Source of the DNA: Escherichia coli
GTDB taxonomy: Bacteria; Pseudomonadota; Gammaproteobacteria; Enterobacterales; Enterobacteriaceae
Assembly: GCF_003018255.1 (NCBI RefSeq)
Contig: NZ_CP027440.1
DNA: 64,000 bases
Direction: 5' to 3' (one strand)
Made by a program: the position numbers and the translations under genes. Every line of letters starts with the position of its first letter. The stretch's first letter is position 1. A model generated the notes under the pieces. The model was not told the DNA's origin. It did not search any database and saw only the letters and a list, made by a program, of their open reading frames with translations. Positions 22,585 through 58,059 of this stretch are shown in pieces.

Positions 22585-23517
22585 ATGGATGCACCGAGTA
22601 CCACACCGCATGACGCGGTATTTAAACAATTTTTAATGCATGCGGAAACGGCTCGTGACTTTCTGGATATCCATTTGCCAGCGGAACTACGCGAACTGTG
22701 TGACCTCGACACGCTGCATCTTGAGTCGGGGAGTTTTATTGAAGAAAGCCTGAAAGGGCACAGCACTGACGTGCTTTATTCCGTGCAAATGCAGGGTAAT
22801 CCCGGTTATTTGCATGTGGTGATTGAACATCAAAGCAAGCCGGATAAGAAAATGACCTTTCGCATGATGCGCTATGCCATTGCCGCCATGCACCGGCATC
22901 TGGAGGCGGATCACGATAAGCTGCCGCTGGTGGTGCCGATTCTGTTTTATCAGGGCGAGGCCACACCTTATCCGCTCTCAATGTGCTGGTTTGATATGTT
23001 TTACTCGCCGGAGCTGGCGCGACGCGTCTATAACAGTCCTTTTCCGCTGGTGGATATCACTATCACACCGGATGACGAAATCATGCAGCACCGGCGGATC
23101 GCGATTCTCGAACTACTGCAAAAGCATATTCGCCAGCGCGACTTAATGTTATTGCTGGAGCAACTGGTCACGCTGATTGACGAAGGGTACACTAGCGGAA
23201 GTCAGTTAGTTGCCATGCAAAACTATATGCTGCAACGCGGTCATACTGAACAAGCGGATTTGTTTTATGGTGTGTTGCGAGACAGGGAAACGGGAGGGGA
23301 GTCTATGATGACGCTGGCGCAGTGGTTTGAAGAGAGGGGAAGACAGGAGGAAAGGCAGGAGGTAAGACAGGAGGTAAGACAGGAGGTAATACAAGAGGTT
23401 AGACAGGAAGTAAGACAGGAATTCGCCCTGCGTTTTCTGAGTAAAGGGATGTCTCGGGAAGACGTTGCAGAGATGGCAAATTTACCTCTTGCTGAGGTTG
23501 ATAAGCTGATTAGCTAA
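22585..23517 (+). CDS. rpnC: Rpn-family (YhgA-like, PD-(D/E)XK) recombination-promoting nuclease with repeat-rich C-terminal tail
   Basis: 310-aa ORF MDAPSTTPHDAVFKQFLMHAETARDFLDIHLP...; N-terminal nuclease-like D...EHQ.K motif; C-terminal (E/Q)VRQ repeats; K-12 YadD is 300 aa as I recall. Confidence 0.9.
   Translation: MDAPSTTPHDAVFKQFLMHAETARDFLDIHLPAELRELCDLDTLHLESGSFIEESLKGHSTDVLYSVQMQGNPGYLHVVIEHQSKPDKKMTFRMMRYAIAAMHRHLEADHDKLPLVVPILFYQGEATPYPLSMCWFDMFYSPELARRVYNSPFPLVDITITPDDEIMQHRRIAILELLQKHIRQRDLMLLLEQLVTLIDEGYTSGSQLVAMQNYMLQRGHTEQADLFYGVLRDRETGGESMMTLAQWFEERGRQEERQEVRQEVRQEVIQEVRQEVRQEFALRFLSKGMSREDVAEMANLPLAEVDKLIS
23343..23426 (+). repeat. seven imperfect 12-bp tandem units inside rpnC encoding RQEE/RQEV repeats
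   Basis: GACAGGAGGTAA-like units read directly from sequence. Confidence 0.85.
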
Positions 23518-23585
23518 GTTATCTGCATTATCAGTTATAGCCAGATAATTGTTATTGTTAACTGACCAGATAATTAAGGGAACAT

Positions 23586-23838
23586 ATGGAAATAAAGACA
23601 CGGAGAGAAACCAGGCAGACGTTGGCGCAGTGGTTTGAAGAGAAGGGATTTCAGAAGGGATTTCAGAAGGGATTTCAGAAGGGATTTCAGAAGGGATATA
23701 AAGAGGGGATATAAAGAGGGGCTCCGGAAGGTAAGGCTGGCCCAGCGTCTTCTGAGTAAAGGAATGTCTCGGGAAGACGTTGCAGAGATGGCAACTTTAT
23801 CTCTTACAGAGGTTGATAAGCTAATTAACTCTAACTAA
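23586..23838 (+). pseudogene. orphan Rpn C-terminal tail cassette, frame-disrupted by a 13-bp tandem duplication
   Basis: SD-like AAGGGA + ATG 23586; MEIKTRRETRQTLAQWFEEKGFQKGFQKGFQKGFQKGYKEGI* in one frame, ...RLLSKGMSREDVAEMATLSLTEVDKLINSN* in the +1 frame; 4 x AGAAGGGATTTC and 2 x GATATAAAGAGGG. Confidence 0.6.
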
Positions 23839-23933: not shown

Positions 23934-24785
23934 TTACGCCAGTTCGACGATTTTGTTGTCGATCAGGCGAGCATCGCCAAGCCAGGCGGCTACCAGAATC
24001 ACTGCCCGTTTGCTGTTTTCAGAGACTTCCTGCAACGTGTCGGCATCACGAATCTGAATATCATCGGCGCGGAAGCCTTTTTCATTCAGTTCTTGCCCGG
24101 CAATAGCAATAATTTCATCGAGATCCCGTTCCCCAGCCTGCAATTTGTCGGCAATTGAACTTAAAACTTTGTACAGACCGGGCGCAATTTTGCGTTGTTC
24201 CGCCGTCAGATAACCGTTACGGGAACTCAGCGCCAGACCGTCTTTGGCGCGCATAATTGGCACACCGATAATCTCAATATCAAAGCCCATATCAGCAACC
24301 ATTTTGCGGATCAGCGCCAGTTGCTGAAAATCTTTTTCACCGAAGCAGGCGATGTCCGGCTGGACCAGATTGAACAGCTTGCTGACAATCGTCGAAACGC
24401 CGCGAAAATGTCCCGGACGGCTGGCACCTTCCAGCATGGTGGAAAGACCGGGAACATCAACATAGGTGTGGGTTTCTGTACCGTTCGGGTAGATCTCTTT
24501 TACCGAAGGCGCGAAAACTAGATCCACTTTACGTTTGTTCAGCTTTTCGCAGTCCTCTTGCAAGGTCCGTGGATAACGTGCCAGATCTTCCGGGCGGTCA
24601 AACTGCATCGGGTTAACGAAAATACTGACCACTACCACATCGGCGCGGGCTTTGGCTTCGTCGACCAGCTTCATATGGCCATCGTGCAGGTTACCCATGG
24701 TGGGCACCAGCGCCACGCGCTTACCTTCCATACGCAGGCGGCGAATTTGCTGACGCAGCAGCGGCAGGGTTTCGATAATTAACAC
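23934..24785 (-). CDS. panC: pantoate--beta-alanine ligase
   Basis: (M)[36 protein letters not shown]...; first codon reads GTG. Confidence 0.95.
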
Positions 24786-24796
24786 AACGTCACTCC

Positions 24797-25591
24797 TTAA
24801 TGGAAACTGTGTTCTTCGCCCGGGTAAACGCCGGACTCCACTTCAGCCATATACTGCCGCACAGCCGCGCGGATGTCGCCCGTTTCGGCGAGGAAATTTT
24901 TAGCGAATTTAGGAATGTGGCCGCCGGTAATGCCGAACGCGTCGTGCATCACGAGGATCTGCCCGTCAGTGACGTTGCCTGCGCCAATGCCAATAACCGG
25001 GATCGCCAGTGCTTCGGTAATACGTTTTGCCAGTTCAACCGGCACGCATTCCAGCACCAGCAGCTGTGCCCCAGCAGCTTCTAATGCCAATGCATCGCTG
25101 AGCAGTTGATCGCCCGCTTCATCGCCGCGCCCCTGGACTTTGTAGCCACCGAAAATATTCACTGACTGTGGGGTTAGGCCTAAATGACCACAAACTGGAA
25201 CGGCACGTTCGGTCAGCATTTGTACGGTTTCCACCAGCCACTCACCGCCTTCAATTTTGACCATGTTGGCTCCGGCACGCATTACCGTTGCGGCGTTTTC
25301 AAAGGCTTGTTCCGGCGTGGCATACGCCATAAATGGCAGGTCAGCCAGCAGAAGGCAGTTTGGCGCGCCGCGACGCACAGCGGCGGTGTGATAGGCGATA
25401 TCGGCAACGGTAACCGGTAGCGTGGAGTCATGCCCCTGAACCGTCATGCCCAGTGAATCGCCTACCAGCATGACGTTAAGTCCTTCTTCGGCAAACAATT
25501 TTGCGAAGCTATAGTCGTAAGCGGTGATGGTTGCGAAACGTTTTTTGTCCTGCTTGCATTTCTGCAATGAAGCAATCGTGGTTGGTTTCAT
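24797..25591 (-). CDS. panB: 3-methyl-2-oxobutanoate hydroxymethyltransferase
   Basis: [34 protein letters not shown]... Confidence 0.95.
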
Positions 25592-25702
25592 AGCGTATCC
25601 TGATAAATGATGTTGTGCTGTCTCGCATTTTATCAGTCACATTGGTGGGGGCAATGATTTATCCGTATCGCACCGCCATTGTCTGGCGGTGCAATAGTGT
25701 TA

Positions 25703-26968
25703 TCAGGGGTAGGTAACCTGAAAAGTGCTGGTGGCTTTAAAATCCCCCGGTTCTATAGCAATATTACCGTCTTGTTTTAATGTAGCCTGGAAATGAAGAG
25801 GTTGTGAGGTACCGTTTCCTTTATCCGGGTAAATTCCTCCGGTAGTGTCATCTTCTGTTTCGTAATCTTTATAAACAGACGTTGAATCATTTGGTTTCAG
25901 TACCATTTGTGCACTTTTAGTGTTTTTTAAACCTTCAATCAGTACACCAACACCTTTTGCTGCGTTATTTCCTGTGAGTGTGTTAGCCAGAAGTTCTTTG
26001 CTTACACTGCCCACCTTGTTTGACATAAGTTTTGTTTCTATATTGCGAACACGAATACAGTTCTGTAGCGTGATATCAAAAGGAACCGCTGTTGCGCCAT
26101 TTTTTATTTGCGCAGGGCTATAATCACCCATTTTAACCGTTGAACCACTTACCGTTGGGCCACTAAGCGCCGCAGTAAAACAGGTAGGGTTTGTTAATAC
26201 GACATCTGTCAGGTCAAAGTCGATTTTAAGAAAATAGCTGTGTTCATTGATACCAATGCCAACACCATATCCTTTGAATGAGTAGAGATAGCTATCTGTT
26301 CTGGATAATGTTACCCGTTGGTTCGTTGTCGGGTTAAAGTCGGTATCGGTATAAAATTCAATCGTGAGAGTTTGCATAACGCCACCAACGGCCCAATATT
26401 TTTTGGTGCTGTTCGCGTTGTTGCAAGACCAATATAGTGTTTGCTCGCTTTGGCCTCGCCAGTTAAAATATTGTTCTTTAGAATCGCCAATATACATGCC
26501 TGATGGGTTGATATCAGTGAGTGTCTCTGTTGACCAAATGTTTGATATTACTAATGTGTAATACAGGCCTGGGACAGATGTCTTAAAGAGTTTATGCCCA
26601 CCATAACTTTTACCGGAATCAACCATTTTATTTTCAATACTCATTGGCGTGCCGCTTGCGTTACCACTTCTGTTACAGTAAAGAAAGCCGCCACCTGAAG
26701 CGGAATCTAACTGCGTCCATTTTAATGACACCCCGGTTGGGCCAAGTTGGGTTGGTTTATAAAAAACTAAATTATTGGTGCCTGAACCATACCGGAATTT
26801 GACGGTGACATCTCCATTGGGGCCTGTTTCTTTCCATTTTTGGTCTGATGGACCAACACCGGCATTATTCCCAACAACATAGCTGACGTTATTAGCTGCA
26901 CCAACACTTGCTGTATAACAACAAGAGCACAGTGCTAAAAAAAGAAAGTATCTGAAGAATATCTTCAT
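25703..26968 (-). CDS. yadC: fimbrial tip adhesin-like protein of the yad chaperone-usher operon
   Basis: signal peptide [24 protein letters not shown] after ATG 26968 with GGAG SD; C-terminal pilin-like domain; longer than the 412 aa I recall for K-12. Confidence 0.85.
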
Positions 26969-27017
26969 TTTTACTCCATTGTCATGCTGCAAGATAATGC
27001 TTGCAGCACTTTGTCTG

Positions 27018-27614
27018 TTATTCGTAGTAAATATCCACTAACACATGGCTTATAAGTTGGCCAGAGGTGACATTCAGCGCTGGATCGATTTTTTGCATTC
27101 GAGTGCTAAATTTCCAGGATGAATTGTTTAGTGCTGATGACATGACCGGATAAACGGAACGTGAGCTACCAGTTACGCCAGGAACGTTGAAGGTATTTGC
27201 CGGGTCCTGAATAGAGAATATAACTACCCCAACATTTTTAGCCCCGGTGTTGTCTTCATTGGCGAATATTTGACTGGAACCTGTCGCCATTACGCCACTG
27301 AGTGCGCGAAAATCAATATGTAACTGATTTAACACATTCCCTGTGCCCTGAAGTGTGCAGTCCTGTACTGTAATAGTGAACTCTTTTCCACCGGGGTGAT
27401 AATTTTCGGCTGAAATGTTTCCGGTAAAATCGCCCACGCCAACGACACCTAAATCAATATTTCCGTTGTTGCTGATTCCACTTTGGCAGGTGTTATTTTT
27501 TATATTTGCAACAATGTCAACATCCTGTCCTGCAACCACAGGGAAAGTGGTGCTGAATAGCAAAGACAGAAGCAGAATTGATTTTTTCATCAGATTACGT
27601 TGAGTGGGGCGCAT
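27018..27614 (-). CDS. yadK: fimbrial subunit (pilin-like)
   Basis: 198-aa ORF with signal peptide; AGGA SD before ATG 27614; alternative start 27590. Confidence 0.85.
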
Positions 27615-27640
27615 ATTTAGTTCCTGAATCGGTCTGCCTG

Positions 27641-28246
27641 TTAGTTATAAGTCACAGTAAATGTTGCCGGAGCGGTGAAATCACCCGCGGTGACATCTGT
27701 AACGGTTTTATCTTTCGCGACCACCAAAACAGCACTCATCGGGTAATCGACAACATCACCTCCCGTCGCACCAGCAATACTGACTTCTTCTGTTGCGGGG
27801 GTGACGCAACTGAATTGTTTTGCGCCGTTTTTACCTGGTGTGGACGTACTCCAGACCTCAACGGCGACTGCCGCTGCTTTTGCTGTTGCCGTTGATGCGT
27901 TAGCAAATCCAGGGCCGTTATTAGAATTACCTTCGCATAAGGCTCGTGGGGTCAACTTTATTTTGGCCTTTTTCCCGGGAATCCCCGCACAGTCTTTGAA
28001 CTGCAATTTGAAGGTTTTAATTTTAGTTTCGGCATTAATTTCAGAAATATATACATCACCGAAATTGATGGTGGACAGTTTAGCTGTACCGTCATCAGTC
28101 AACGTTGATGTACAGGTACCCATTTCTATGTCTGTAGTAACAGTCAGGCCAATACTATCAGTGGCCGCATGTGAGGAAATGGTTAACAGTGATGAAGCCA
28201 GAAATAGACTACCCGATAATCCATAACATAATTTTTTTAATATCAT
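27641..28246 (-). CDS. yadL: fimbrial subunit (pilin-like)
   Basis: MILKKLCYGLSGSLFLASSLLTISSHAATDS...; start chosen at ATG 28246 (AGGA SD upstream), ORF also open to 28255. Confidence 0.85.
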   Translation of the reverse strand: MILKKLCYGLSGSLFLASSLLTISSHAATDSIGLTVTTDIEMGTCTSTLTDDGTAKLSTINFGDVYISEINAETKIKTFKLQFKDCAGIPGKKAKIKLTPRALCEGNSNNGPGFANASTATAKAAAVAVEVWSTSTPGKNGAKQFSCVTPATEEVSIAGATGGDVVDYPMSAVLVVAKDKTVTDVTAGDFTAPATFTVTYN

Positions 28247-28260
28247 CATTGTCATCCTTG

Positions 28261-28833
28261 TTATTGATAGATGAAATTGAACGTTGCCTGTGCGCGAAAT
28301 TTCCCGGGTATGCCCTGTCCTGGGGTTGTTTCGCGCAGTGCGACAGTCATTTCCAGACCACTGGTGCTAATTTCTGTGGTTTTCCAGCGGATGTATTCCG
28401 CGCTATTGGGTTTCAGAAACGTATCGCCCGAAGTCTCTAATCTTTTAAATCCCATACCAATATTACTGGTTGTTGAGGAGGAGTCAGAAGATTGTGGAAT
28501 AATCAGCGATGTACTACCAGACTGATTTCCAGTCATTGTGGTATCAATCCAGCTAATTCCACTGCTACACCCACTGGCGACTAATTTGAAGTTGGCCTCA
28601 GATTGTGACGCTTTATTGACTATCTTATCCAGTCCCATCTTGGGGATTATCAGGGTATAACTATCATTGCCATTATCAACGACGTTTGAACCATTCAGCG
28701 ATGTCAGGGTGATGTTACATGTTGTCGCTTTCACGGTAGCGGTAAAATCGACATTAACATCCGTTGCAAATACAGATGGCGATAATAATAGCCCCATGAG
28801 TATTGCTATTTTATGTGGTGTGGTTTTTATCAT
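28261..28833 (-). CDS. yadM: fimbrial subunit (pilin-like)
   Basis: MIKTTPHKIAILMGLLLSPSVFATDV... signal peptide, pilin fold length. Confidence 0.85.
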   Translation of the reverse strand: MIKTTPHKIAILMGLLLSPSVFATDVNVDFTATVKATTCNITLTSLNGSNVVDNGNDSYTLIIPKMGLDKIVNKASQSEANFKLVASGCSSGISWIDTTMTGNQSGSTSLIIPQSSDSSSTTSNIGMGFKRLETSGDTFLKPNSAEYIRWKTTEISTSGLEMTVALRETTPGQGIPGKFRAQATFNFIYQ

Positions 28834-28849
28834 TGGAAGTCCCTTGTGG

Positions 28850-31450
28850 TTACTGTATCTGACAACGAAGTCCGTTCAGAATAATAGATTGCGCTATTTT
28901 TTCTGATGTCGTGTTTTGTTGGTAATGAGCAAAACAACTGACTGGTTTGCCCTCTTCAATCCAGGTAATTCGTATATTTCCTTCCTGCCCGATACCGCGA
29001 ACAAAGGCCTGACCACCCTGACCTACGTTGCCGATGATATTGTTTTGTTCATCATAAATATCCGCTGCAAATGGAATATTTTTACCATCGCTTCGCACGA
29101 TATTCATAATTGCCGATTGTCCCTGAACTGTTTCAAAATCAGCAAAGACGACGGCTCCCTGGCGCGGGACGGCGACAGTACTGGTGCTTTTCAATTCAAC
29201 ATCGTTTTCCAGATCGTTAATGTCCAGTGCGATACGGTTTTCATGGTATGGCGAAAGGGCGCTGGTCACACCATAACCCCAGCGGTCTACGGTGCTGTTT
29301 CCGTAGTTAATACGAGCGCCTTTTGCTCCTGGCGCCTGAATGACAGCCAGAGTGTCGGAATCACTAAAACTGTCATTACTGAACGTCAGCCCGCCGCTAT
29401 GTAACACAAATCCACCATCAGTATTGAGTGAGAATTGGCGACTATTATCACTGCTTGCTGAGGCTGAACCTGACAGAGTTCCCCACGGCGATTCATAACT
29501 GGCATAACCGCCGATATAACTCAGGTCATCACTGGATTTATTCATCATATAACCCGTGTTTACGCTGTAGCTGATGCGATTGGTATCGCTGTAACCACTA
29601 CTGCTGATATTGAGTTGGTTATTACCCTTAAAGTCGCTGTTTAATTGTGTATCAATACTCTGGAAGCCGGAGCTGCGGTGTTCCGTACCCAGTAAATTTT
29701 CTATTGGAATCGTGAAGCTGAGATAAATGCTATCGTCGGTTTGACCATCTTCATTCAACGAACGTTGAGCACTGATACTGTAACTGCCCCAGGACGCACT
29801 ATTGCTATAACCAATAGAGTAATTAGTACTGTTTTGCCCGGAGGCCCAGTAATCTGACCAGCTTCCCGAGAGATAAAATGAACCGTAATCCTTTTTCTCA
29901 AATTTCAGCGGTTGGTTGATACTGACCGTGACCTGATTTTTCATGCGCGAGTAATTGCGCATGGATTTAGGCTCAAGATCTTGCTCAGGATGTTCTACTT
30001 CATCAATCAGCGTCAGCGCATCATTGAGGCCCAGATAATGCTGGGTGGAGTAGCGATAGGCCGCGATATTTAATGATGTACTGGTATTTTCAAATAACTT
30101 GTTCCAGGAAATACGGTAGCTTTGTCCTTGATAGGTTTTATCGTCCGGAATGCTGACATTTGAGTGAGTAACATCGACAGAAAAAGCCCCCACGGGGGTA
30201 TTCATACCAAGCCCCAGCAATCCGGCGGTATAGTTATTATCAGTTAGCTGAATACCGGTATATCCTGTCAGGTAGTTATTCAAACCATAGTAGTAGCTGG
30301 CTTGAAATAAATTAGGCTCATCCTGGATACTGTCTTTTAAAACCTGACCGGCGCTAATATCCCAGCGACCAACGCCAGGGCGCAGCATTTGCACAACAGA
30401 TGAAAATGGCTGGGAGAACGTCCGTTTTGTGCCATCAGCTTCTTCGATAGTCACAATGAGATCACTGCCATAACCTGACGGGCTAAGATCATCAATGGCA
30501 AAGGCCCCTGGCGGCACCGTCGTTTCATAGATTTTATAACCATTTTGCATAACGGTTACTTTGGCATTGGTATTCGCTACGCCATGAATGATTGGCGCAA
30601 AACTGGCTAATACCGGAGGCAGCATTCGACTGTCACTGTATAAGCGAATACCGCGAATGCTGACTGAATCGAAGGTCTCGCCGGTCGTGTAAGATTCACC
30701 AATAACCAGTTGTGAACGTAGTGACGCAAGATCGCGTTGTAAATAGCGATTCTGAAAATCATAATCACTATGGACATTGGTCATCCAGTTGTAGTTACCT
30801 GAGGCACGTAACCGCCACGCGCCTAAGTTTATCCCACCGTTGAATGCCGCATAGATACTGTCATTTGTTCTGCCTGGACTTTCACTGTGATATCCATTGA
30901 GGTTGTAGGAAAGCATGGCTGCATTAATGCCATTTTCCCACAAAGAGGGATCAACATAGTTTTGATAATTCTTCATAATCCATGCCTGGGGGACGTCGAT
31001 ATCCAGGCGTTGATCGTTAACATCGTAACGAATGGATGATTGAGGGATCATTTCAGCCAGATTGAGGCAATCACCAAGATCTTCGTCTCGCTTAAGCAAA
31101 ATGGCTTTTTCGCTATTCTTGTCTGGTGAACTGATATGAAATTGCAATAAATTTTTCTGCGTAATGCAGGCCTGAGCGTTCTTTTTACCTTCAATAACAG
31201 TAAAAGCAATGCTTTGGCTCATGATAGGTTGATCGTTAACATACACACTGACATCGTAAATGCCTGGTAGTGTCGGGTTGCCTTCTGTATACCGACTAAG
31301 GTCGATATTTGAAGCATCCTTTCCCATCAGAAATGTATGGTCATATTCGACGAGTTCAGCGCATAAAGCACTGTTGCTATACAGCAGCGCGCAAAACGTG
31401 GCGATGCGGGTAAGGTGATTATGATATTTTTTAGTGGATTTAATAGTCAC
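28850..31450 (-). CDS. htrE: outer-membrane fimbrial usher
   Basis: translation from GTG 31450 (AGGAAG SD 5 nt upstream): (M)TIKSTKKYHNHLTRIATFCALLYSNSALCAE...; ~866 aa usher; ORF-track extension overlapping yadV rejected. Confidence 0.9.
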   Translation of the reverse strand: MTIKSTKKYHNHLTRIATFCALLYSNSALCAELVEYDHTFLMGKDASNIDLSRYTEGNPTLPGIYDVSVYVNDQPIMSQSIAFTVIEGKKNAQACITQKNLLQFHISSPDKNSEKAILLKRDEDLGDCLNLAEMIPQSSIRYDVNDQRLDIDVPQAWIMKNYQNYVDPSLWENGINAAMLSYNLNGYHSESPGRTNDSIYAAFNGGINLGAWRLRASGNYNWMTNVHSDYDFQNRYLQRDLASLRSQLVIGESYTTGETFDSVSIRGIRLYSDSRMLPPVLASFAPIIHGVANTNAKVTVMQNGYKIYETTVPPGAFAIDDLSPSGYGSDLIVTIEEADGTKRTFSQPFSSVVQMLRPGVGRWDISAGQVLKDSIQDEPNLFQASYYYGLNNYLTGYTGIQLTDNNYTAGLLGLGMNTPVGAFSVDVTHSNVSIPDDKTYQGQSYRISWNKLFENTSTSLNIAAYRYSTQHYLGLNDALTLIDEVEHPEQDLEPKSMRNYSRMKNQVTVSINQPLKFEKKDYGSFYLSGSWSDYWASGQNSTNYSIGYSNSASWGSYSISAQRSLNEDGQTDDSIYLSFTIPIENLLGTEHRSSGFQSIDTQLNSDFKGNNQLNISSSGYSDTNRISYSVNTGYMMNKSSDDLSYIGGYASYESPWGTLSGSASASSDNSRQFSLNTDGGFVLHSGGLTFSNDSFSDSDTLAVIQAPGAKGARINYGNSTVDRWGYGVTSALSPYHENRIALDINDLENDVELKSTSTVAVPRQGAVVFADFETVQGQSAIMNIVRSDGKNIPFAADIYDEQNNIIGNVGQGGQAFVRGIGQEGNIRITWIEEGKPVSCFAHYQQNTTSEKIAQSIILNGLRCQIQ

Positions 31451-31484
31451 GTTCTGCTTCCTGCTGTGGTATATCCTTGCCAGA

Positions 31485-32225
31485 TTAAAGGTTGGCGTTG
31501 CCTTCAATAGAGCCGCCAAAATCATTAATGGCGAAAAAATGCACTTTTGCAGAGCTTGTTCTGCCACTCATCCCATTTACCTTGATGACGTCGTTACTGA
31601 ACGGCGCAATCATTTTCACATCCAGGGGATAGCGTTTGCCGTTGGCTTCTAAATCACCACTGCTAAAAGAGACATAGTAGGGCGTAGGGTTATCAACGCG
31701 TAATGCCGCTTTGCCTTCAGATGTTGCCCAGGACCACTTCAGAGCCAATGGCGCATCAGATGGAATTCCACTCAATCCTTCCGGGCGATAGAACAGTTTT
31801 ATACGTGTACGAAATGCCAGTTGTAGCAGGCTTTGATTTGCTGCTTTTGCTGCATCGGGTTTTGGTGGAACTTCCAGTACGTTAAACCAGAACACACTTT
31901 CTCTGTCTTTTGGCAGAGCACTACTGGCGGTGTACATCAGTTTGATTGTTTGGCCACGTTTAGCATCAATACGTGATACTGGTGGCGTAGCGGTAAAGGG
32001 GACAGTAATACTGCCTGGTTCAGCGTTGTCATCTCCAGTATCTAACCAACTCTGAACCAGCAATGGGTTATTGCCTTTATTTTCCAGACGCACATTGACG
32101 CTTTTTTGTTCGCTTTTATAAACTACGCGTGTACCTGAAATTACGATGTCTGCAATAGCTGATGAGCTAAAAGCCATACAGCTCGCTAAGCACAATGCTG
32201 CGGTATGTTTAGTATTAAAAAACAT
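31485..32225 (-). CDS. yadV: periplasmic fimbrial chaperone (PapD-like)
   Basis: MFFNTKHTAALCLASCMAFSSSAIADIVISGTRVVY...; also known as ecpD. Confidence 0.9.
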   Translation of the reverse strand: MFFNTKHTAALCLASCMAFSSSAIADIVISGTRVVYKSEQKSVNVRLENKGNNPLLVQSWLDTGDDNAEPGSITVPFTATPPVSRIDAKRGQTIKLMYTASSALPKDRESVFWFNVLEVPPKPDAAKAANQSLLQLAFRTRIKLFYRPEGLSGIPSDAPLALKWSWATSEGKAALRVDNPTPYYVSFSSGDLEANGKRYPLDVKMIAPFSNDVIKVNGMSGRTSSAKVHFFAINDFGGSIEGNANL

Positions 32226-32333
32226 AAACCGTTCCTCACAGAGTTAATTAAAACAGGGAATAACGTTCAAAAATAAATATGTTTGATGTTATTCCCTATA
32301 TATATTCACCCAATCAATTTAGGTGGCTGATAT

Positions 32334-32924
32334 TTACTGGTAAGTAATGGTATATGCTGAGTTAGTTTTTACATAACCGGCAGTTGCTGCTTTGCTTGCA
32401 TCAGCACGAACATAGGATGCTTTAAAATCGTAGGTTGCAGTTTTAGACGTTGCATCCAGAGTTTTGCTGTAAACATCACCCGGATTATTAACCTGAACCT
32501 GCTTAATAGTGGAACCTTCAATATTATGCAGGGCAATATTCACACCATCAGATGGATTATTGATAGACATATCGTTATTCAGAGTACCTTTGCTATTGCT
32601 AAAGAACACGGAACCGAAAGTCATTTTTGCAGTAGTACCCGGAGCCGGGTTAGCTTTGCTGCAGTCAATAGTAATGCTGAATGGCTTAGCTTTAGCACCT
32701 ACGGTGGTATCCAGTACACCATCGGTGATTTCAGCAACAGTAGCGGTTTGCAGCAGGATCAAACCATCTTTGTTACCGCCATCAACACGAGCTTCACAGG
32801 TGTTATCAACGACCAGGCCGCTAATATTTAACTGACCACCGTCCATATCGTTAGCAGCAAATGCAGTACCAGCAGCCATTGCCAACATAATACCAGACAG
32901 CGCAAAACCTAATTTTTTAGACAT
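32334..32924 (-). CDS. yadN: major fimbrial subunit-like protein
   Basis: [32 protein letters not shown]...; first gene of the yad operon; ORF-track extension rejected. Confidence 0.88.
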
Positions 32925-33101
32925 AAAAATCCTTGAATAATATTCCATAGAGAGATAACCGCACCGCATGACGATAAGAGTCTGCTGCAATGCTGCGTAA
33001 CAAAATCGTTACTGTGTTAATGATGTTTGTCTGTTGTTTACCAACTATTACATTCATTCATCATCGGGATGGCTATTTTGCATAATGTGATAGCATATGC
33101 A

Positions 33102-33142
33102 ATTTAATTTTACTAAAAATAAAAGTTAGTAAAATTAAATTT
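33102..33142. promoter_or_regulatory. perfect 16-bp inverted repeat (AATTTAATTTTACTAA-N9-TTAGTAAAATTAAATT) in AT-rich yad operon upstream region
   Basis: read directly from sequence; lies ~180-220 bp upstream of yadN start and ~145 bp downstream of folK stop. Confidence 0.5.
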
Positions 33143-33285
33143 GAAAGCTAAGAGGGATAGTGTATGGCGTGAGAATTACGGGAAGGTATATTATATTTTC
33201 TAAAATTTTATTTATCTTAATGATATTGTTTTGGCAATAACTTGAGGTTGTTTTCAGAATATATTTATATTCACACGAATAATAA

Positions 33286-33765
33286 TTACCACTTATCTAA
33301 TTCATTAAAGCCTTTTGCCTGTAGAGCTTCAACTAATGATAAGCCATCAGGAAATAGCAATTCCGGCGCAATTTCAAACAGTGGCCACAGCATAAAGCCG
33401 CGATTTTTCATATCGTAGTGCGGAACGGTCAGACGTTCGGTATTTATTACTTCATTACCAAACAGCATGATGTCGAGATCCAGCGTGCGCGGTCCCCAGC
33501 GTTCAGCTTTACGGACGCGACCTTGCTGCAATTCGATACGCTGTGTGTGATTGAGTAGCTCTTCAGGGGCAAGAGTGGTTTTCAGCGCGACGGCTGCATT
33601 TAAGTAATCGGGTTGATCTTGCGGCCCCAGCGGTGGGGTGCGGTAAAACGAAGAAACAGCAAGAATGCGGCTTTCTGGAATATCGCCTAATGCTTTCAGG
33701 GCAGCATTGACCTGCTCCAGCGGAGAGGCCAGATTGCTGCCGATGGCAATATACGCCACTGTCAT
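33286..33765 (-). CDS. folK: 2-amino-4-hydroxy-6-hydroxymethyldihydropteridine pyrophosphokinase
   Basis: [61 protein letters not shown]... Confidence 0.95.
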
Positions 33766-35159
33766 GCGGTACCCTCACGACGCGGTGCGCGTTTGCGTGG
33801 ACGACGAGTACGGCGACGCGGTGACGGTTCTTCATCCAGTTCGTTAAGCATCCCTTTTTGGTCTGGTGGCGCGGAAACCTGGAACTCACCCCACCATTTC
33901 ACCAGACGTTGCAGTTCAGCGTTACGCTCAACTTCGGCTCGTAAGGCCAACAGGTCGTATGCCGCACGGAACTTAGGATGCTCCAGCAGTTTCCAGGCGC
34001 GTTTACCCTGACGTCGGGACATACGCAACTGCAACTGCCAGATATCGCGGGTTAACGTCGTCAGACGTTTCGGGATCGCCAGTGAACGACAGGCTTCGTC
34101 CAGCACGTCGTTCATCGCCAGCGCGAAAGCGTCGTGATAGGTCAGGCCGCTTTCCTGGGCGATCTTCTGTGCCGTCTCCAGCAGTGGGTACCAGAACATG
34201 GCGGCAAACAGGAACGCCGGGTTCACGCGCATATCGTTATGGATACGCGTATCGGTATTCTTCAGCACCTGTTCAATGATCCGCTCCATCGGGCTGTCGC
34301 CATTTTCCGTGAAGTAGCGGGTAATGGTCGGGAACAGCGGCTGGAACAGGTGATATTCACACAGCAGCTTATAGGTTTCGTAACCGTAGCCCGCTTGCAG
34401 CAGTTTCAAAGATTCTTCAAACAGACGTGCCGGTGGAATATCGTTCAGCAGGGTAGCCAGGCGAGGGATCGGTTCTGCGGTTTCAGGACTGATACGCATA
34501 CCCAATTTGGCGGCAAAACGTACCGCGCGCAGCATCCGTACCGGATCTTCACGGTAGCGCGTTTCCGGGTTACCAATCAGACGGATAACGCCGTCCTTCA
34601 GATCCTTCATGCCGCCAACGTAATCACGGACGGTAAAATCTGCCACGCTGTAATACAGGCTGTTGATAGTGAAATCGCGGCGCTGGGCGTCTTCTTCGAT
34701 GGAGCCGAAAATGTTGTCGCGCAGCAACATGCCGTTTTGCCCGCGTTGGGAGGTCGTGCGGTCGCTGACGTTACCTTCGTGATGTCCACGGAAGGTCGCA
34801 ACTTCGATAATCTCCGGGCCAAACATCACATGAGCCAGACGGAAACGGCGACCCACCAGGCGGCAGTTACGGAACAGTTTACGTACCTGTTCAGGCGTGG
34901 CGTTAGTGGTTACGTCAAAATCTTTCGGCTTTTTGCCAAGTAACAGGTCGCGCACGCCACCGCCAACCAGCCAGGCTTCGTATCCCGCTTTATTGAGCCT
35001 GTACATTACCTTCAGGGCATTTTCACTGATATCTTTGCGGGAAATAGCATGCTGCTCACGCGGGATCACCGTCACCTGTGGACGGGCGACTGCCTGTTCA
35101 GCCTCGCTTTCCTCGCGGCTTAGCACCTTGCGGCAAAAATTAGCGACTCGGGTAAAAAT
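33762..35159 (-). CDS. pcnB: poly(A) polymerase I
   Basis: translation (I->M)[42 protein letters not shown]...; no in-frame ATG at the N-terminus, start assigned to ATT at 35159-35157 following the known non-canonical AUU initiation of pcnB; 4-bp overlap with folK. Confidence 0.88.
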
Positions 35160-35218
35160 AGTACACCTCGGTAGTGTCAAACATCATTCAGGACAAAAAA
35201 ATAGCGGCTAATCATAGC

Positions 35219-36145
35219 TCAGCATGACGCATTTGAGAATGTTGAATTTACAATTGCCGACTCAGGCACGGCGGTAAGCCGCCAGTTTTTGACGGCTGAC
35301 TGAAGGATTTGCTCGACGCTGAAATCCTGCCAGTGTGCTTCTGCCTGCTGACCCAGAAATTGAAGTGCCGCGATTAGTACCGGGCGCGGATCGCCTTTCG
35401 GCAACGCAGGCGCATGATTCTGCTTGGAAAGTTTAGCGCCTTGTGTGTTAAGCGCCAGCGGTAAATGAATGTAATCTGGCACTTTCCAGCCAAAAAGCTG
35501 GTACAGCGAGATTTGCCGCACTGTCGGTTCGATCAAATCTGCCCCGCGGACAATTTCGCTCACGCCCTGGAAGTGATCATCCACCACCACCGCCAGGTTA
35601 TAGGCAAACAAACCATCACGGCGATGAATAATAAAATCTTCCCGCGCCAGTTTTTCGTTGGCGTGAATAATGCCGCGCAGCTGATCAGTAAATAGCGTGA
35701 CCGGATGCTGCTGGCGGATACGTACTGCGGCGTTGTCTGGTCCATGATGCAATTCCCGGCAATGACCGTCGTAAATACCGCCAATGCTTTGAATACGCGC
35801 GCGCGTGCAGGTGCAGTAATAACTTAGTCCTTGCTCATGTAACCAGGCGAGTGCTTCGCGATAGGCATCGTGACGTTGCGATTGCCAGAGAACGTCGCCG
35901 TCCCAGTGCAGACCGTAATGTTCCAGCTGGCGCAGGATAGTCTCTGCGGCACCGGGAACTTCACGAGGCGGGTCGATATCTTCAATGCGTACCAGCCAGC
36001 GACCTTGCCGGGCGCGAGCCTGTAAATAGCTGCCAAGCGCGGCAATCAGAGAGCCAAAATGAAGCTCGCCGGAAGGAGAGGGGGCAAAGCGGCCAATATA
36101 GTGTGTGTCTGTCATCTCGTTGAACAAAAAATAAGGCGGGAGCAT
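35219..36145 (-). CDS. gluQ: glutamyl-Q tRNA(Asp) synthetase
   Basis: [33 protein letters not shown]... (class I aaRS HIGH-like motif); formerly yadB. Confidence 0.9.
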
Positions 36146-36181: not shown

Positions 36182-36637
36182 TTAGCCAGCCATTTGTTTT
36201 TCGCGAATTTCAGCCAGCGTTTTGCAGTCGATGCACAGATCGGCTGTCGGGCGCGCTTCCAGACGGCGAATACCAATTTCAACACCGCAGGATTCGCAGT
36301 AGCCGAAATCTTCGTCTTCCACTTTTTTCAGCGTCTTCTCGATCTTTTTGATCAGCTTACGCTCGCGATCGCGGTTACGCAGTTCGAGGCTGAACTCTTC
36401 TTCCTGGGCTGCACGGTCTACCGGGTCCGGGAAGTTGGCTGCTTCATCCTGCATATGTGTAACGGTGCGATCGACTTCATCCCTGAGTTGATTACGCCAT
36501 GCTTCCAGAATACGACGGAAGTGCGCCAGCTGGGCTTCATTCATATACTCTTCGCCCGGCTTCTCCTGATATGGTTCCACCCCAGCGATGGCGAGAATAC
36601 TCAGGGACGATGTTTTACGGTTTTGCCCTTCTTGCAT
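36182..36637 (-). CDS. dksA: RNA polymerase-binding transcription factor DksA
   Basis: [51 protein letters not shown]...; C4 zinc finger [25 protein letters not shown]. Confidence 0.95.
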
Positions 36638-36814
36638 GTTGCTTCTCCTTAACACGCACTATCGATCCCCATGTTCGGGGGAAAAATGAGGCCGCTATAA
36701 ATAGCAGATGCTTTTCCGGATAGCAATTATCTAAACGTAACACTTGACAACTGTGTGAGGAAAAGCGTATTTGCGCACGCGACCAGAATGTAAATTAACC
36801 AGTTACATACTTTA

Positions 36815-38064
<1,250 letters not shown>

Positions 38065-38137
38065 GTGAGGCACTCGGTTATGAATTACCGCGATGCTACA
38101 ATGTGGCGCGAAGAATGTTAACCCACTGGAGCGTTTT

Positions 38138-40567
38138 GTGTCGTCGTTGCCCGTTGCTGCCGTCTTACCTGAGTTACTTGCTGCTCTCGATTGTGCATCG
38201 CAGGTGTTATTAAGTGCGCCGACCGGGGCCGGGAAATCAACCTGGCTGCCGCTGCAACTGCTGGCGCATCCCGGCATTAACGGGAAAATTATCCTGCTGG
38301 AGCCGCGTCGTCTGGCGGCGCGTAACGTTGCGCAACGACTGGCGGAGCTGCTTAACGAAAAGCCAGGCGATACCGTTGGCTACCGGATGCGTGCGCAAAA
38401 CTGCGTCGGGCCGAATACCCGCCTGGAAGTGGTTACCGAAGGCGTGCTGACGCGGATGATCCAGCGTGACCCGGAACTGAGCGGTGTTGGATTGGTGATC
38501 CTTGATGAATTTCATGAGCGCAGCTTGCAGGCGGATTTGGCGTTGGCGCTGTTACTCGATGTGCAACAAGGTCTGCGTGATGACCTTAAACTGCTGATTA
38601 TGTCGGCTACGCTGGACAACGACCGCTTGCAGCAAATGCTGCCAGAAGCGCCCGTCGTCATCTCAGAAGGGCGCTCGTTTCCGGTTGAACGCCGTTATTT
38701 GCCGCTGCCCGCTCATCAGCGTTTTGACGAAGCCGTCGCGGTTGCCACCGCCGAAATGCTGCGTCAGGAAAGTGGATCATTACTGTTATTTTTACCTGGC
38801 GTCGGAGAAATTCAGCGTGTGCAGGAACAACTGGCTTCACGCATCGGCAGTGATGTGTTGCTCTGCCCGCTGTATGGCGCGTTGTCGCTGAACGATCAGC
38901 GAAAAGCGATCCTCCCGGCACCGCAAGGGATACGTAAAGTGGTGCTGGCGACCAATATTGCTGAAACCAGTTTAACCATCGAAGGTATTCGTCTGGTGGT
39001 GGATTGTGCCCAGGAGCGTGTGGCGCATTTTGATCCGCGTACAGGGCTTACGCGGCTGGTTACTCAACGCGTTAGTCAGGCGTCGATGACGCAACGTGCC
39101 GGGCGTGCCGGGCGTCTGGAGCCGGGTATCTGCCTGCATTTAATCGCCAAAGAACAAGCAGAACGCGCTGCCGCGCAAAGTGAACCGGAGATCTTACAAA
39201 GCGATCTTTCCGGTTTGCTGATGGAATTACTGCAATGGGGATGCAGCGATACGGCGCAGATGAGCTGGCTGGATCAACCGCCAACGGTGAATCTACAGGC
39301 CGCGAAACGGCTGTTACAAATGCTGGGGGCGCTGGAGGGTGAACGGCTTAGCGCACAAGGGCAAAAAATGGCAGTGCTGGGTAGCGATCCGCGTTTAGCG
39401 GCAATGCTGGTTAGCGCGAAGAACGACGACGAAGCTGCTACCGCGGCAAAAATTGCCGCCATTCTCGAAGAGCCGCCACGGATGGGCAATAGTGACCTGG
39501 GCGTGGCGTTTTCGCGCAATCAACCCGCCTGGCAGCAACGTAGTCAGCAACTGTTAAAACGCTTAAACGTACGCGGCGGTGAGGCAGACAGTTCGCTTAT
39601 CGCGCCGCTACTTGCCGGGGCGTATGCCGATCGCATTGCTTGTCGCCGTGGGCAAGATGGACGCTATCAACTGGCAAACGGCATGGGGGCGATGCTCGAT
39701 GCCGACGATGCGCTAAGCCGCTACGAATGGTTGATCGCACCGTTATTATTGCAGGGCAGCGCCTCGCCGGATGCGCGGATTTTACTGGCGCTACCGGTCG
39801 ATATCGATGAATTAGTACAACGCTGTCCGCAGCTGGTACAGCAGTCGGACACCGTGGAATGGGATGACGCGCAAGGCACGCTGAAAGCCTGGCGTCGGCT
39901 GCAAATCGGTCAGTTGACGGTGAAAGTGCAGCCACTGGCGAAACCCTCGGAAGACGAGTTGCATCAGGCGATGCTTAACGGCATCCGTGATAAAGGTTTA
40001 AGCGTGCTCAACTGGACGGCGGAAGCGGAACAGCTACGCTTGCGTTTGTTATTCGCCGCAAAGTGGTTGCCGGAATATGACTGGCCAGCGGTTGATGATG
40101 AGAGTTTGTTGGCGACGCTGGAAACGTGGCTACTGCCGCATATGAGCGGCGTGCATTCACTACGCGGCCTGAAATCACTCGACATTTATCAGGCGCTACG
40201 CGGATTACTTGATTGGGGAATGCAGCAACGTCTGGATAGTGAATTGCCTGCGCATTACACTGTGCCGACGGGAAGCCGGATCGCCATTCGTTATCATGAA
40301 GATAAACCGCCCGCGCTGGCGGTGAGAATGCAGGAGATGTTTGGTGAGGCCACCAATCCGACGATCGCCCAGGGGCGCGTGCCGCTGGTGCTGGAGTTGC
40401 TTTCCCCTGCCCAAAGGCCATTACAAATCACACGAGATTTGAGCGCCTTCTGGAAAGGAGCGTACCGTGAGGTGCAAAAAGAGATGAAAGGGCGTTATCC
40501 CAAACATGTCTGGCCGGACGACCCGGCAAATACTGCACCGACGCGACGGACGAAAAAGTATTCGTGA
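38138..40567 (+). CDS. hrpB: ATP-dependent RNA helicase HrpB (DEAH-box)
   Basis: from GTG 38138: (M)SSLPVAAVLPELLAALDCASQVLLSAPTGAGKSTWLP...; DEFH box ILDEFHERS. Confidence 0.9.
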   Translation: MSSLPVAAVLPELLAALDCASQVLLSAPTGAGKSTWLPLQLLAHPGINGKIILLEPRRLAARNVAQRLAELLNEKPGDTVGYRMRAQNCVGPNTRLEVVTEGVLTRMIQRDPELSGVGLVILDEFHERSLQADLALALLLDVQQGLRDDLKLLIMSATLDNDRLQQMLPEAPVVISEGRSFPVERRYLPLPAHQRFDEAVAVATAEMLRQESGSLLLFLPGVGEIQRVQEQLASRIGSDVLLCPLYGALSLNDQRKAILPAPQGIRKVVLATNIAETSLTIEGIRLVVDCAQERVAHFDPRTGLTRLVTQRVSQASMTQRAGRAGRLEPGICLHLIAKEQAERAAAQSEPEILQSDLSGLLMELLQWGCSDTAQMSWLDQPPTVNLQAAKRLLQMLGALEGERLSAQGQKMAVLGSDPRLAAMLVSAKNDDEAATAAKIAAILEEPPRMGNSDLGVAFSRNQPAWQQRSQQLLKRLNVRGGEADSSLIAPLLAGAYADRIACRRGQDGRYQLANGMGAMLDADDALSRYEWLIAPLLLQGSASPDARILLALPVDIDELVQRCPQLVQQSDTVEWDDAQGTLKAWRRLQIGQLTVKVQPLAKPSEDELHQAMLNGIRDKGLSVLNWTAEAEQLRLRLLFAAKWLPEYDWPAVDDESLLATLETWLLPHMSGVHSLRGLKSLDIYQALRGLLDWGMQQRLDSELPAHYTVPTGSRIAIRYHEDKPPALAVRMQEMFGEATNPTIAQGRVPLVLELLSPAQRPLQITRDLSAFWKGAYREVQKEMKGRYPKHVWPDDPANTAPTRRTKKYS

Positions 40568-56589: not shown

Positions 56590-56634
56590 AGAACACAGCA
56601 ATTTTGCGTTATCTGTTAATCGAGACTGAAATAC

Positions 56635-58059
56635 ATGAAAAAAACCACATTAGCACTGAGTGCACTGGCTCTGAGTTTAGGTTTGGCGTTATCTCCGCTC
56701 TCTGCAACGGCGGCTGAGACTTCTTCAGCAACGACAGCCCAGCAGATGCCAAGCCTTGCACCGATGCTCGAAAAGGTGATGCCTTCAGTGGTCAGCATTA
56801 ACGTAGAAGGTAGCACAACCGTTAATACGCCGCGTATGCCGCGTAATTTCCAGCAGTTCTTCGGTGATGATTCTCCGTTCTGCCAGGAAGGTTCTCCGTT
56901 CCAGAGCTCTCCGTTCTGCCAGGGGGGCCAGGGCGGTAATGGTGGCGGCCAGCAACAGAAATTCATGGCGCTGGGTTCCGGCGTCATCATTGATGCCGAT
57001 AAAGGCTATGTCGTCACCAACAACCACGTTGTTGATAACGCGACGGTGATTAAAGTCCAGCTGAGCGATGGCCGTAAGTTCGACGCGAAGATGGTTGGCA
57101 AAGATCCGCGCTCTGATATCGCGCTGATCCAGATCCAGAACCCGAAAAATCTGACCGCAATTAAGATGGCGGATTCTGATGCACTGCGCGTGGGTGATTA
57201 CACCGTAGCAATTGGTAACCCGTTTGGTCTGGGCGAGACGGTAACTTCCGGGATTGTCTCTGCGCTGGGGCGTAGCGGCCTGAATGCTGAAAACTACGAA
57301 AACTTCATCCAGACCGATGCAGCGATCAACCGTGGTAACTCCGGTGGTGCGTTGGTTAACCTGAACGGCGAACTGATCGGTATCAACACCGCGATCCTCG
57401 CACCGGACGGCGGCAACATCGGTATCGGTTTTGCTATCCCGAGTAACATGGTGAAAAACCTGACCTCGCAGATGGTGGAATACGGCCAGGTGAAACGCGG
57501 TGAGCTGGGTATTATGGGGACTGAGCTGAACTCCGAACTGGCGAAAGCGATGAAAGTTGACGCCCAGCGCGGTGCTTTCGTAAGCCAGGTTCTGCCTAAC
57601 TCCTCCGCTGCAAAAGCGGGCATTAAAGCGGGTGATGTGATCACCTCACTGAACGGTAAGCCAATCAGCAGCTTTGCCGCCCTGCGTGCTCAGGTGGGTA
57701 CTATGCCGGTGGGCAGCAAACTGACCCTGGGCTTACTGCGCGACGGTAAGCAGGTTAACGTGAACCTGGAACTGCAGCAGAGCAGCCAGAATCAGGTTGA
57801 TTCCAGCTCCATCTTCAACGGCATTGAAGGCGCTGAGATGAGCAACAAAGGCAAAGATCAGGGCGTGGTAGTGAACAACGTGAAAACGGGCACTCCGGCT
57901 GCGCAGATCGGCCTGAAAAAAGGTGATGTGATTATTGGCGCGAACCAGCAGGCAGTGAAAAACATCGCTGAACTGCGTAAAGTTCTCGACAGCAAACCGT
58001 CTGTGCTGGCACTGAACATTCAGCGCGGCGACAGCACCATCTACCTGTTAATGCAGTAA
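56635..58059 (+). CDS. degP: periplasmic serine endoprotease/chaperone DegP (HtrA)
   Basis: MKKTTLALSALALSLGLALSPLSATAAETSSATTAQQMPSLAPMLEKVMPSVVSINVEG...; GNSGGAL catalytic-serine motif, two PDZ domains. Confidence 0.96.
   Translation: MKKTTLALSALALSLGLALSPLSATAAETSSATTAQQMPSLAPMLEKVMPSVVSINVEGSTTVNTPRMPRNFQQFFGDDSPFCQEGSPFQSSPFCQGGQGGNGGGQQQKFMALGSGVIIDADKGYVVTNNHVVDNATVIKVQLSDGRKFDAKMVGKDPRSDIALIQIQNPKNLTAIKMADSDALRVGDYTVAIGNPFGLGETVTSGIVSALGRSGLNAENYENFIQTDAAINRGNSGGALVNLNGELIGINTAILAPDGGNIGIGFAIPSNMVKNLTSQMVEYGQVKRGELGIMGTELNSELAKAMKVDAQRGAFVSQVLPNSSAAKAGIKAGDVITSLNGKPISSFAALRAQVGTMPVGSKLTLGLLRDGKQVNVNLELQQSSQNQVDSSSIFNGIEGAEMSNKGKDQGVVVNNVKTGTPAAQIGLKKGDVIIGANQQAVKNIAELRKVLDSKPSVLALNIQRGDSTIYLLMQ

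Follow-up and report, generated by a model that had tools for sequence, protein, structure and literature searches.

We describe the Yad fimbrial operon of Escherichia coli as it is found in a 64,000-nucleotide stretch of DNA (contig NZ_CP027440.1), which we call the window throughout. Between panB (24797-25591) and folK (33286-33765), positions 25703-33285 hold seven intact open reading frames (ORFs) on the minus strand, all of full length and in the operon order yadN-yadV-htrE-yadM-yadL-yadK-yadC. The gene identities are based on Pfam matches, which are in accord with the RefSeq annotation of strain 200164, whose yad block differs from that of the window by one base. The genes and the basis of their identification are the following (aa, amino acids; PGAP, the NCBI Prokaryotic Genome Annotation Pipeline):

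25703-26968, minus strand: yadC, tip adhesin, 421 aa from its ATG (ORF; Pfam match on the C-terminal part)
27018-27614, minus strand: yadK, minor fimbrial subunit, 198 aa (ORF; PGAP 'fimbrial-like protein', WP_001247918.1)
27641-28249, minus strand: yadL, minor fimbrial subunit, 202 aa (Pfam PF00419; PGAP YadL)
28261-28833, minus strand: yadM, minor fimbrial subunit, 190 aa (Pfam PF00419)
28850-31450, minus strand: htrE, outer-membrane usher, 866 aa, GTG start (Pfam; PGAP WP_000153309.1)
31485-32225, minus strand: yadV (ecpD), periplasmic chaperone, 246 aa (Pfam; PGAP fimbrial chaperone)
32334-32924, minus strand: yadN, major pilin, 196 aa from its ATG (Pfam PF00419; PGAP start)

The gene content can be read directly from these matches. 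YadV contains PapD_N (E 2e-44) and PapD_C (E 3e-18), and PapC_N, Usher (E 4e-160) and PapC_C are all matched in HtrE. The PF00419 family is found in YadN, YadM and YadL and, in YadC, over the C-terminal 160 residues. YadK has no Pfam match at E <= 1e-3; a weak PF00419 match was recorded for its orthologue in another of the compared sequences (L014). All parts of a classical chaperone-usher operon are present, namely a chaperone, an usher, pilins and a two-domain tip adhesin, and the folK-panB site, the gene order and an HtrE-orthologous usher identify the locus as Yad. We conclude that the block is very probably the known chromosomal, core-associated Yad operon of E. coli, intact and in its CFT073-type haplotype. 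By homology, the YadV chaperone and the HtrE usher would assemble a fibre of the major pilin YadN, with the minor subunits YadM, YadL and YadK as adaptors and YadC as the adhesin at the tip. The N-terminal lectin domain of YadC would be the receptor binder; for other alleles, D-xylose-containing glycans and annexin A2 have been published as ligands.

The base composition of the block is clearly distinct. Its GC content is 42.9%, compared with 52.3% in the remaining window, and no other 7.6-kb stretch of the 64 kb is as low. Individual yad genes have 41-45% GC, and 36-45% at third codon positions (GC3), against 54.8% in panB, 52.2% in panC, 55.5% in pcnB and 49.4% in folK, with a flank GC3 of 48-61%. 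The lowest value, 27.5%, is found in the intergenic region between yadN and folK. The original prediction held that the block is more AT-rich than its neighbours and that its YadC is not the common allele, and both are what we observe.

The seven genes are strongly diverged from K-12. The K-12 operon is like that of the window in its orthologous locus, its architecture, a GC content of 41.7% and a TTTACT-N13-AGTAAA element upstream, but its proteins are only 60-87% identical: 60% for YadC, 68% for YadL, 76% for YadM, 77% for YadK, 86% for both YadV and YadN, and 87% for HtrE. The YadC lectin domains share 52% identity, and K-12 YadC has 412 aa. Synonymous divergence (dS) to K-12 is 0.8-1.6 in the yad genes versus 0.01-0.28 in the flanks, where the proteins are 98-100% identical, and sliding nucleotide identity is 55-85% in the block versus 95-100% in the flanks. 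The ratio of non-synonymous to synonymous change (omega) is 0.04-0.22 across the seven genes, which indicates purifying selection. The divergence does not stop at the gene boundaries and reaches about 150-250 bp into the 5' end of panB and the 3' end of folK; the dS of panB is higher than that of panC and pcnB. These two edges are:

25450-25702, minus strand: 5' end of panB and yadC-panB intergenic region, with a drop in K-12 identity from about 0.95 to 0.84
33286-33440, minus strand: 3' end of folK, reached by the haplotype divergence (sliding identity; FolK protein alignment)

The spill into folK is visible in the protein. The C-terminal 18 or so residues of FolK vary strongly and go with the yad haplotype; seven genomes showed five different tails. 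The tails differ between yad haplotypes because the divergent segment extends into the 3' end of folK.

The ushers found at the folK-panB site define at least four backbones, which we call types I to IV. Type I comprises K-12, EC958 and PF9285, type II the window, Nissle, LF82 and B20123, and type III WP5-S18 and FDAARGOS_1285, while type IV has six genes and an usher with 74-76% identity to those of the other types. There is an extra cluster of E. coli ushers at 86% identity. The assignment of the window to type II follows directly from the comparison of its HtrE, which is 99% identical to that of CFT073 and Nissle, 84% to type III, 74% to type IV and 62-63% to Salmonella ushers. CFT073 itself belongs to type II because its seven Yad proteins share their RefSeq accessions with those of Nissle. 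The operon of CFT073 and Nissle 1917 has the same site, seven-gene order and usher backbone as the window, with identities of 98.8% for YadV, 98% for YadN, 96% for YadK and 95% for YadL, and a YadC of 421 aa in both. Classified by nucleotide identity of the usher, type I occurs in 3,301 and type II in 559 (10.3%) of 5,426 complete genomes, and the usher is found at 60-80% identity in the remaining 1,366.

We made several further observations on the usher types. A type IV operon lies at the folK-panB site of a Logan contig (ERR9384698; L021:6243-13229), and type IV is found in 461 of the 5,426 complete E. coli genomes. With 74-76% identity its usher fails the 80% HtrE identity threshold used in a recent survey (PMC13245861, PLoS Pathog 2026), and phylogroups reported as Yad-negative under this threshold may carry type IV. 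A decayed type II operon was seen in GCA_014582805.1 (L022:4164-9421), in which the usher is cut to 730 aa and no genes are called at the expected positions of yadN/yadV and yadM/yadL. The 730-aa usher is common to many database entries. A 3.6-kb contig named 'MAG: Proteobacteria bacterium' (JAEWKH010000045.1; L012) holds a partial usher that is 100% identical to the HtrE of the window, and probably represents E. coli DNA that was assigned to a metagenome-assembled genome (MAG) during binning.

Within type II the window is not uniform. It is 95-100% identical to Nissle, LF82 and B20123 over htrE, yadV, yadK and yadL, and diverges locally in four places, namely the lectin-coding portion of yadC, the greater part of yadM (72-77%), a portion of yadN (88%) and the region upstream (82-86%). 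YadM is 81% identical to that of CFT073, Nissle and LF82, with the 72-77% nucleotide identity located at 28300-28700, and the upstream region is about 85% identical to that of CFT073 and Nissle. Against the same two operons, the lectin half of YadC has 74% protein identity and a dS of 0.65, compared with 98% and 0.10 for the pilin half. The yadM allele of the window is present at >=95% identity in 184 of the 5,426 genomes, and the upstream allele at >=99% in 77 and at 80-90% in 481. Both alleles are also found in a poultry-associated lineage that includes strain 104.

The comparison with strain 104 places the breakpoints directly. Over 24300-35400 the window is nearly identical to this strain apart from one patch, in which 176 of 869 nucleotides (nt) differ, against 10 of 10,232 outside it (Fisher p ~2e-187). 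The first and last differences, at 26114 and 26930, correspond to YadC residues 22-284, so that the patch can be set beside the parts of the protein as follows:

26897-26968, minus strand: YadC signal peptide, roughly residues 1-24
26192-26896, minus strand: YadC lectin domain, roughly residues 25-259
25703-26191, minus strand: YadC pilin domain, residues 260-421
26114-26930, minus strand: recombinant lectin-domain cassette inside yadC, about 20% divergent from the strain 104 operon

The patch is a clean swap, through homologous recombination, of nothing but the lectin domain of YadC. The replacement of the lectin domain is the latest visible event in the yad locus of the window. The cassette is rare in its exact form (3 of the 5,426 genomes); versions at 95-99% identity were found in 13 genomes and at 90-95% in 300.

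YadC is, in its structural model, a two-domain adhesin with a lectin domain that resembles the receptor-binding domains of chaperone-usher systems. The fold class is that of the F17-like and related domains of UclD, GafD, Abp1D, MrkD, AtfE and LpfD, to which it aligns over about 150 of 235 residues at 5-16% identity. The lectin domain has no Pfam family, and a PDB sequence search with YadC gave no matches. That YadC is an allelic variant, as the original prediction suggested, is borne out by the alignment, in which the differences and insertions fall in the N-terminal receptor-binding domain. We infer from this sequence divergence that the binding specificity of the window YadC may be altered. 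The CFT073 allele binds D-xylose and annexin A2 (PMC6921372), and ligand binding has been published only for the K-12 and CFT073 alleles of YadC.

The length of YadC depends on the choice of start codon. Read from a TTG at 26992 the protein has 429 aa, and read from an ATG at 26968 it has 421 aa, while K-12 YadC has its 412 aa from the equivalent ATG and is called with 416 aa by PGAP from a start farther upstream. The excess of nine residues over K-12 is the sum of three indels, all in the N-terminal domain: four residues added right after the signal peptide, six added at residues 40-45 (PSDQKW) and one lost near residue 149. Both insertions map to the mature protein's first loop, where confidence in the model is lowest. 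The ATG has GGAG 5 nt upstream. The TTG is found without a Shine-Dalgarno sequence and lies within the 3' arm of a hairpin stem:

26984-27009, minus strand: intercistronic RNA hairpin between yadK and yadC, 10-bp stem (predicted fold)

The hairpin has a predicted energy of -15.8 kcal/mol (z = -3.2 against shuffles), and the GGAG of yadC comes after it. Other haplotypes have a weaker or different hairpin, and K-12 and Escherichia sp. E4742 lack it. The hairpin might tune the stoichiometry of the adhesin. For yadN, the ATG at 32924 has an AAGGA-N5-ATG context that is kept in all haplotypes and is favoured over a 218-aa ORF starting at a TTG. Given the GGAG before the yadC ATG, the TTG in the hairpin and the conserved AAGGA, we consider a YadC of 421 aa and a YadN of 196 aa to be the forms used, and a 429-aa YadC unlikely.

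PGAP is not consistent in its choice for YadC: strains 200164 and 104 are given 421 aa, whereas in Nissle, LF82, B20123 and CFT073 the call begins at the upstream TTG and yields 428-429 aa. One could suspect from this variation, together with the 416 aa called in K-12, that the length difference is an artefact of start-codon annotation. This is scarcely credible, since the homologous GGAG-preceded ATG present in all alleles still gives 421 against 412 aa and the three indels are real. The ATG-based lengths of the original prediction thus stand, whereas its alternative of 429 aa is unlikely. Its description of YadC as a length variant is correct as far as the indels go but undersells the difference, as the whole operon has about 79% nucleotide identity to the K-12 type. 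The length is class-typical because type II YadC proteins have 420-421 aa, and for the same reason we rejected length as a trait that defines the allele.

Two features are found upstream of yadN:

32925-33285, minus strand: upstream regulatory region of yadN, 27.5% GC (base composition; alignment of six haplotypes)
33101-33141, no strand assigned: inverted repeat, candidate operator (perfect 16-nt arms, 9-nt spacer)

In CFT073 the activity of the yad promoter rises more than 100-fold in an hns mutant, all yad genes are derepressed in both CFT073 and EC958, and published chromatin immunoprecipitation places H-NS on the region (PMC13245861, which also refers to Korea 2010 and Larsonneur 2016 for K-12). 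With its intergenic region at 27.5% and the whole block at 42.9% GC, the window has the AT-richness expected of an H-NS-silenced locus. Because it combines the CFT073 backbone with this AT-rich upstream region, we infer by analogy that its allele is probably silenced by H-NS as well. The operon would most likely be H-NS-silent until host or environmental cues relieve the repression, as in CFT073, EC958 and K-12.

The centre of the inverted repeat lies 197 bp upstream of the yadN ATG. In 1,000 dinucleotide-preserving shuffles its arm length of 16 nt was never reached, the maximum being 12. The half-sites of its core, TTTACT-N13-AGTA(A/G)A, and the distance between them are kept in all five of the type II operons, in K-12, in type III and in Escherichia sp. 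E4742, although the inner bases vary. The pattern occurs once in the window and was present in 8 of 20,000 shuffles. EC958, GCA_902385855.1 and type IV have a different palindrome at a similar position. The recent study of yad regulation identified no mechanism past H-NS de-repression and hypothesised an antagonising regulator (PMC13245861). We suggest the palindrome as a candidate operator for such an anti-H-NS regulator. There is no Rfam match in the yad block.

The low GC content led the original prediction to propose a horizontally acquired island between panB and folK, silenced as foreign DNA. The GC content is indeed about 9 points under that of the flanks and lower still upstream of yadN, the edges are sharp when compared with K-12, and AT-rich acquired DNA is a typical target of H-NS silencing (discussed in PMC13245861). 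However, the folK-panB site holds a yad operon in all E. coli haplotypes examined, including the six-gene type IV, and also in two genomes of other Escherichia, one of them Escherichia sp. E4742, with a seven-gene operon. The usher is matched in 5,227 of the 5,426 genomes; a minority of E. coli genomes have deletions at the locus. Yad has been described as core-associated and syntenic with Salmonella Sta (Wurpel 2013, PMC3559732). Atypical composition is the only mark of an island that we find. The relatives examined do not show an empty site, no tRNA gene lies between the 15-kb and 45-kb positions of the window, no direct repeats bracket the block, no integrase is annotated, and the Rpn-family/transposase remnant falls outside panBC. 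Every E. coli type and both of the other Escherichia genomes have a GC3 of about 0.40 (0.38-0.42), compared with 0.58-0.60 in the flanks, although dS is saturated. Because GC3 stays constant at saturated synonymous sites, low GC is a stable property of the locus and not the trace of a recent import, and the sharp edges against K-12 are allele boundaries, not insertion junctions. A recent horizontal island is therefore very improbable. It is just as doubtful that the operon is a decaying cryptic remnant without current function. In K-12 grown in the laboratory Yad is cryptic (as cited in PMC3559732 and PMC13245861), and decayed versions exist in other lineages, with the 730-aa usher, missing genes or insertion sequences, but in the window all seven ORFs are full length, omega is 0.04-0.22, and the CFT073-type operon is induced by serum and its deletion attenuates infection (PMC13245861).

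A more difficult question is how the haplotypes arose. The htrE genes of different E. coli types are separated by a dS of 1.4 to saturation, which equals or exceeds the dS to alleles of other species (1.4-2.0) and is 5-10 times that of the flanks, where between-species dS is only 0.15-0.35, with panB higher. In a bootstrapped neighbour-joining tree the Escherichia ushers form one clade (100%) with a nearly star-like interior; the HtrE of the window falls in this clade with 100% bootstrap, and the Salmonella ushers are the next named relatives. By these distances, the yad haplotypes appear to be old. One explanation is that type II, or the lectin cassette, was introgressed from an Escherichia-like species by homologous recombination through panB and folK and is not an old polymorphism of E. 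coli. This would account for a divergence between haplotypes as large as that between species and for the spill into panB and folK, which is what recombination end-points should leave, and in the usher tree the non-coli alleles do nest among the E. coli types. But the nesting has a bootstrap of just 64%, and among the sampled non-coli alleles even the nearest to type II reaches only 85-88% protein identity. A species-representative usher scan, in which the peptide patterns were overly specific, gave only the MAG fragment and one E. coli contig, and the two models are hard to tell apart once synonymous sites are saturated. We regard introgression as unlikely.

The reading that we favour is that the locus is probably an old polymorphism hot-spot, with several saturated haplotypes at the folK-panB site shuffled by homologous recombination. 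In its full form this reading is possible, and we would not put it more strongly: at least four to five saturated haplotypes, as old as the Escherichia splits or older, would be maintained by selection, modules such as the lectin domain, yadM and the promoter would be shuffled between them, the low GC would be actively maintained and the palindrome would serve as an anti-H-NS operator. Other surface-antigen loci of E. coli, such as the fimA and fimH alleles and the rfb region, are likewise hypervariable and flanked by conserved genes. They resemble yad in having old alleles at a fixed site, breakpoints in the flanks and modular exchange of the exposed domain.

Some results weigh against parts of our overall explanation of the block. 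Part of the high dS may come from synonymous sites that change faster at an AT-rich locus with poor expression, and the haplotypes would then be younger than they seem. The omega of the lectin domain, 0.28-0.38, is relaxed compared with the usher (0.04) but under 1, so that gene-wide positive selection is not visible on it. The window lectin domain is only 74% identical to that of CFT073 and 52% to that of K-12, and its specificity may differ from theirs. The CFT073 promoter allele that was tested and the upstream region of the window are about 15% apart. A high-affinity nucleation motif for H-NS is TCGATAAATT, which is not required for binding. Allowing up to two mismatches, this motif is depleted in the block, with one match compared with about 11 +/- 3.4 expected from composition; it has no match in the upstream region and occurs 1.26 times per kb outside the block. 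The poverty of the block in CG dinucleotides may contribute to the depletion, and we count this weak test neither way. A sigma-70 scan of 25400-33500 gave 22 promoter-like sites, compared with 19 +/- 4.4 expected, and the scan for sigma-70 promoters and terminators found nothing convincing upstream of yadN.

Among the other known systems, ST131 strain EC958 represents the second of two B2 subtypes (PMC13245861). It shares the locus and has a K-12-type usher that is 88% identical to that of the window, but its YadC is 63% identical and 417 aa long, and its upstream region and palindrome class are different. Salmonella Sta occupies the identical locus, as known from the literature, and its usher StaC clusters with Yad in the phylogeny of Wurpel 2013 (PMC3559732), although the usher identity to the window is only 62-63%. 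The same authors described Yad as core-associated and inferred its presence in the common ancestor. The survey in PMC13245861 reported the prevalence of yad, the conservation of the major subunit, of the chaperone and of the usher versus the variability of the minor subunits and adhesin, the concentration of YadC variation in the lectin domain, the two B2 subtypes of EC958 and CFT073, and recombination between phylogroups. Our finding is thus already known in kind, since lectin variation and yad subtypes were described in 2026, and the current understanding of the Yad system is unchanged by it. The increments made here are the exact breakpoints of the lectin swap, the census of backbones, the saturated dS combined with a low GC3 that stays stable, the extension of the divergence into FolK and the choice of start codon.

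The neighbourhood of the operon also shows variation. The flanks of strain 200164 are mosaic relative to the window, with 98.4% identity over 23.7 kb, and the nearest genome is DETEC-S792 at 99.3%. In the sfsA-thpR-hrpB stretch (36500-38500) strain 200164 differs by up to about 30% per 500 nt, while K-12 is 98-99% identical to the window; the stretch is another recombination mosaic. Between panD and panC, at 22585-23830, we find a gene for an Rpn-family recombination-promoting nuclease and a frameshifted transposase remnant. This stretch varies in length and sequence among strains, with a 12-nt indel near 23652 relative to strain 200164. The panC gene beside yad is annotated as a frameshifted pseudogene in Nissle 1917 and CFT073 (L004:6731-7583 and L023:8466-9318) and is intact in the window. 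The sole Rfam family match in the window is the thermometer in the 5' untranslated region of HtrA (RF02700, 77 bits) at 56595-56640 on the plus strand.

For the annotation of such loci, our analysis shows that low GC and H-NS silencing need not mean recent horizontal acquisition. Yad is among the most widespread fimbriae of E. coli and has recently been linked to bladder and bloodstream infection. The window shows that Yad operons which are otherwise identical can differ through exchange of the receptor-binding domain alone. Blockers based on xylose or annexin A2 have been proposed as anti-adhesion agents, and the experiments behind them used single alleles. With a window lectin domain so different from those of CFT073 and K-12, results on ligands and inhibitors may therefore not transfer between strains.

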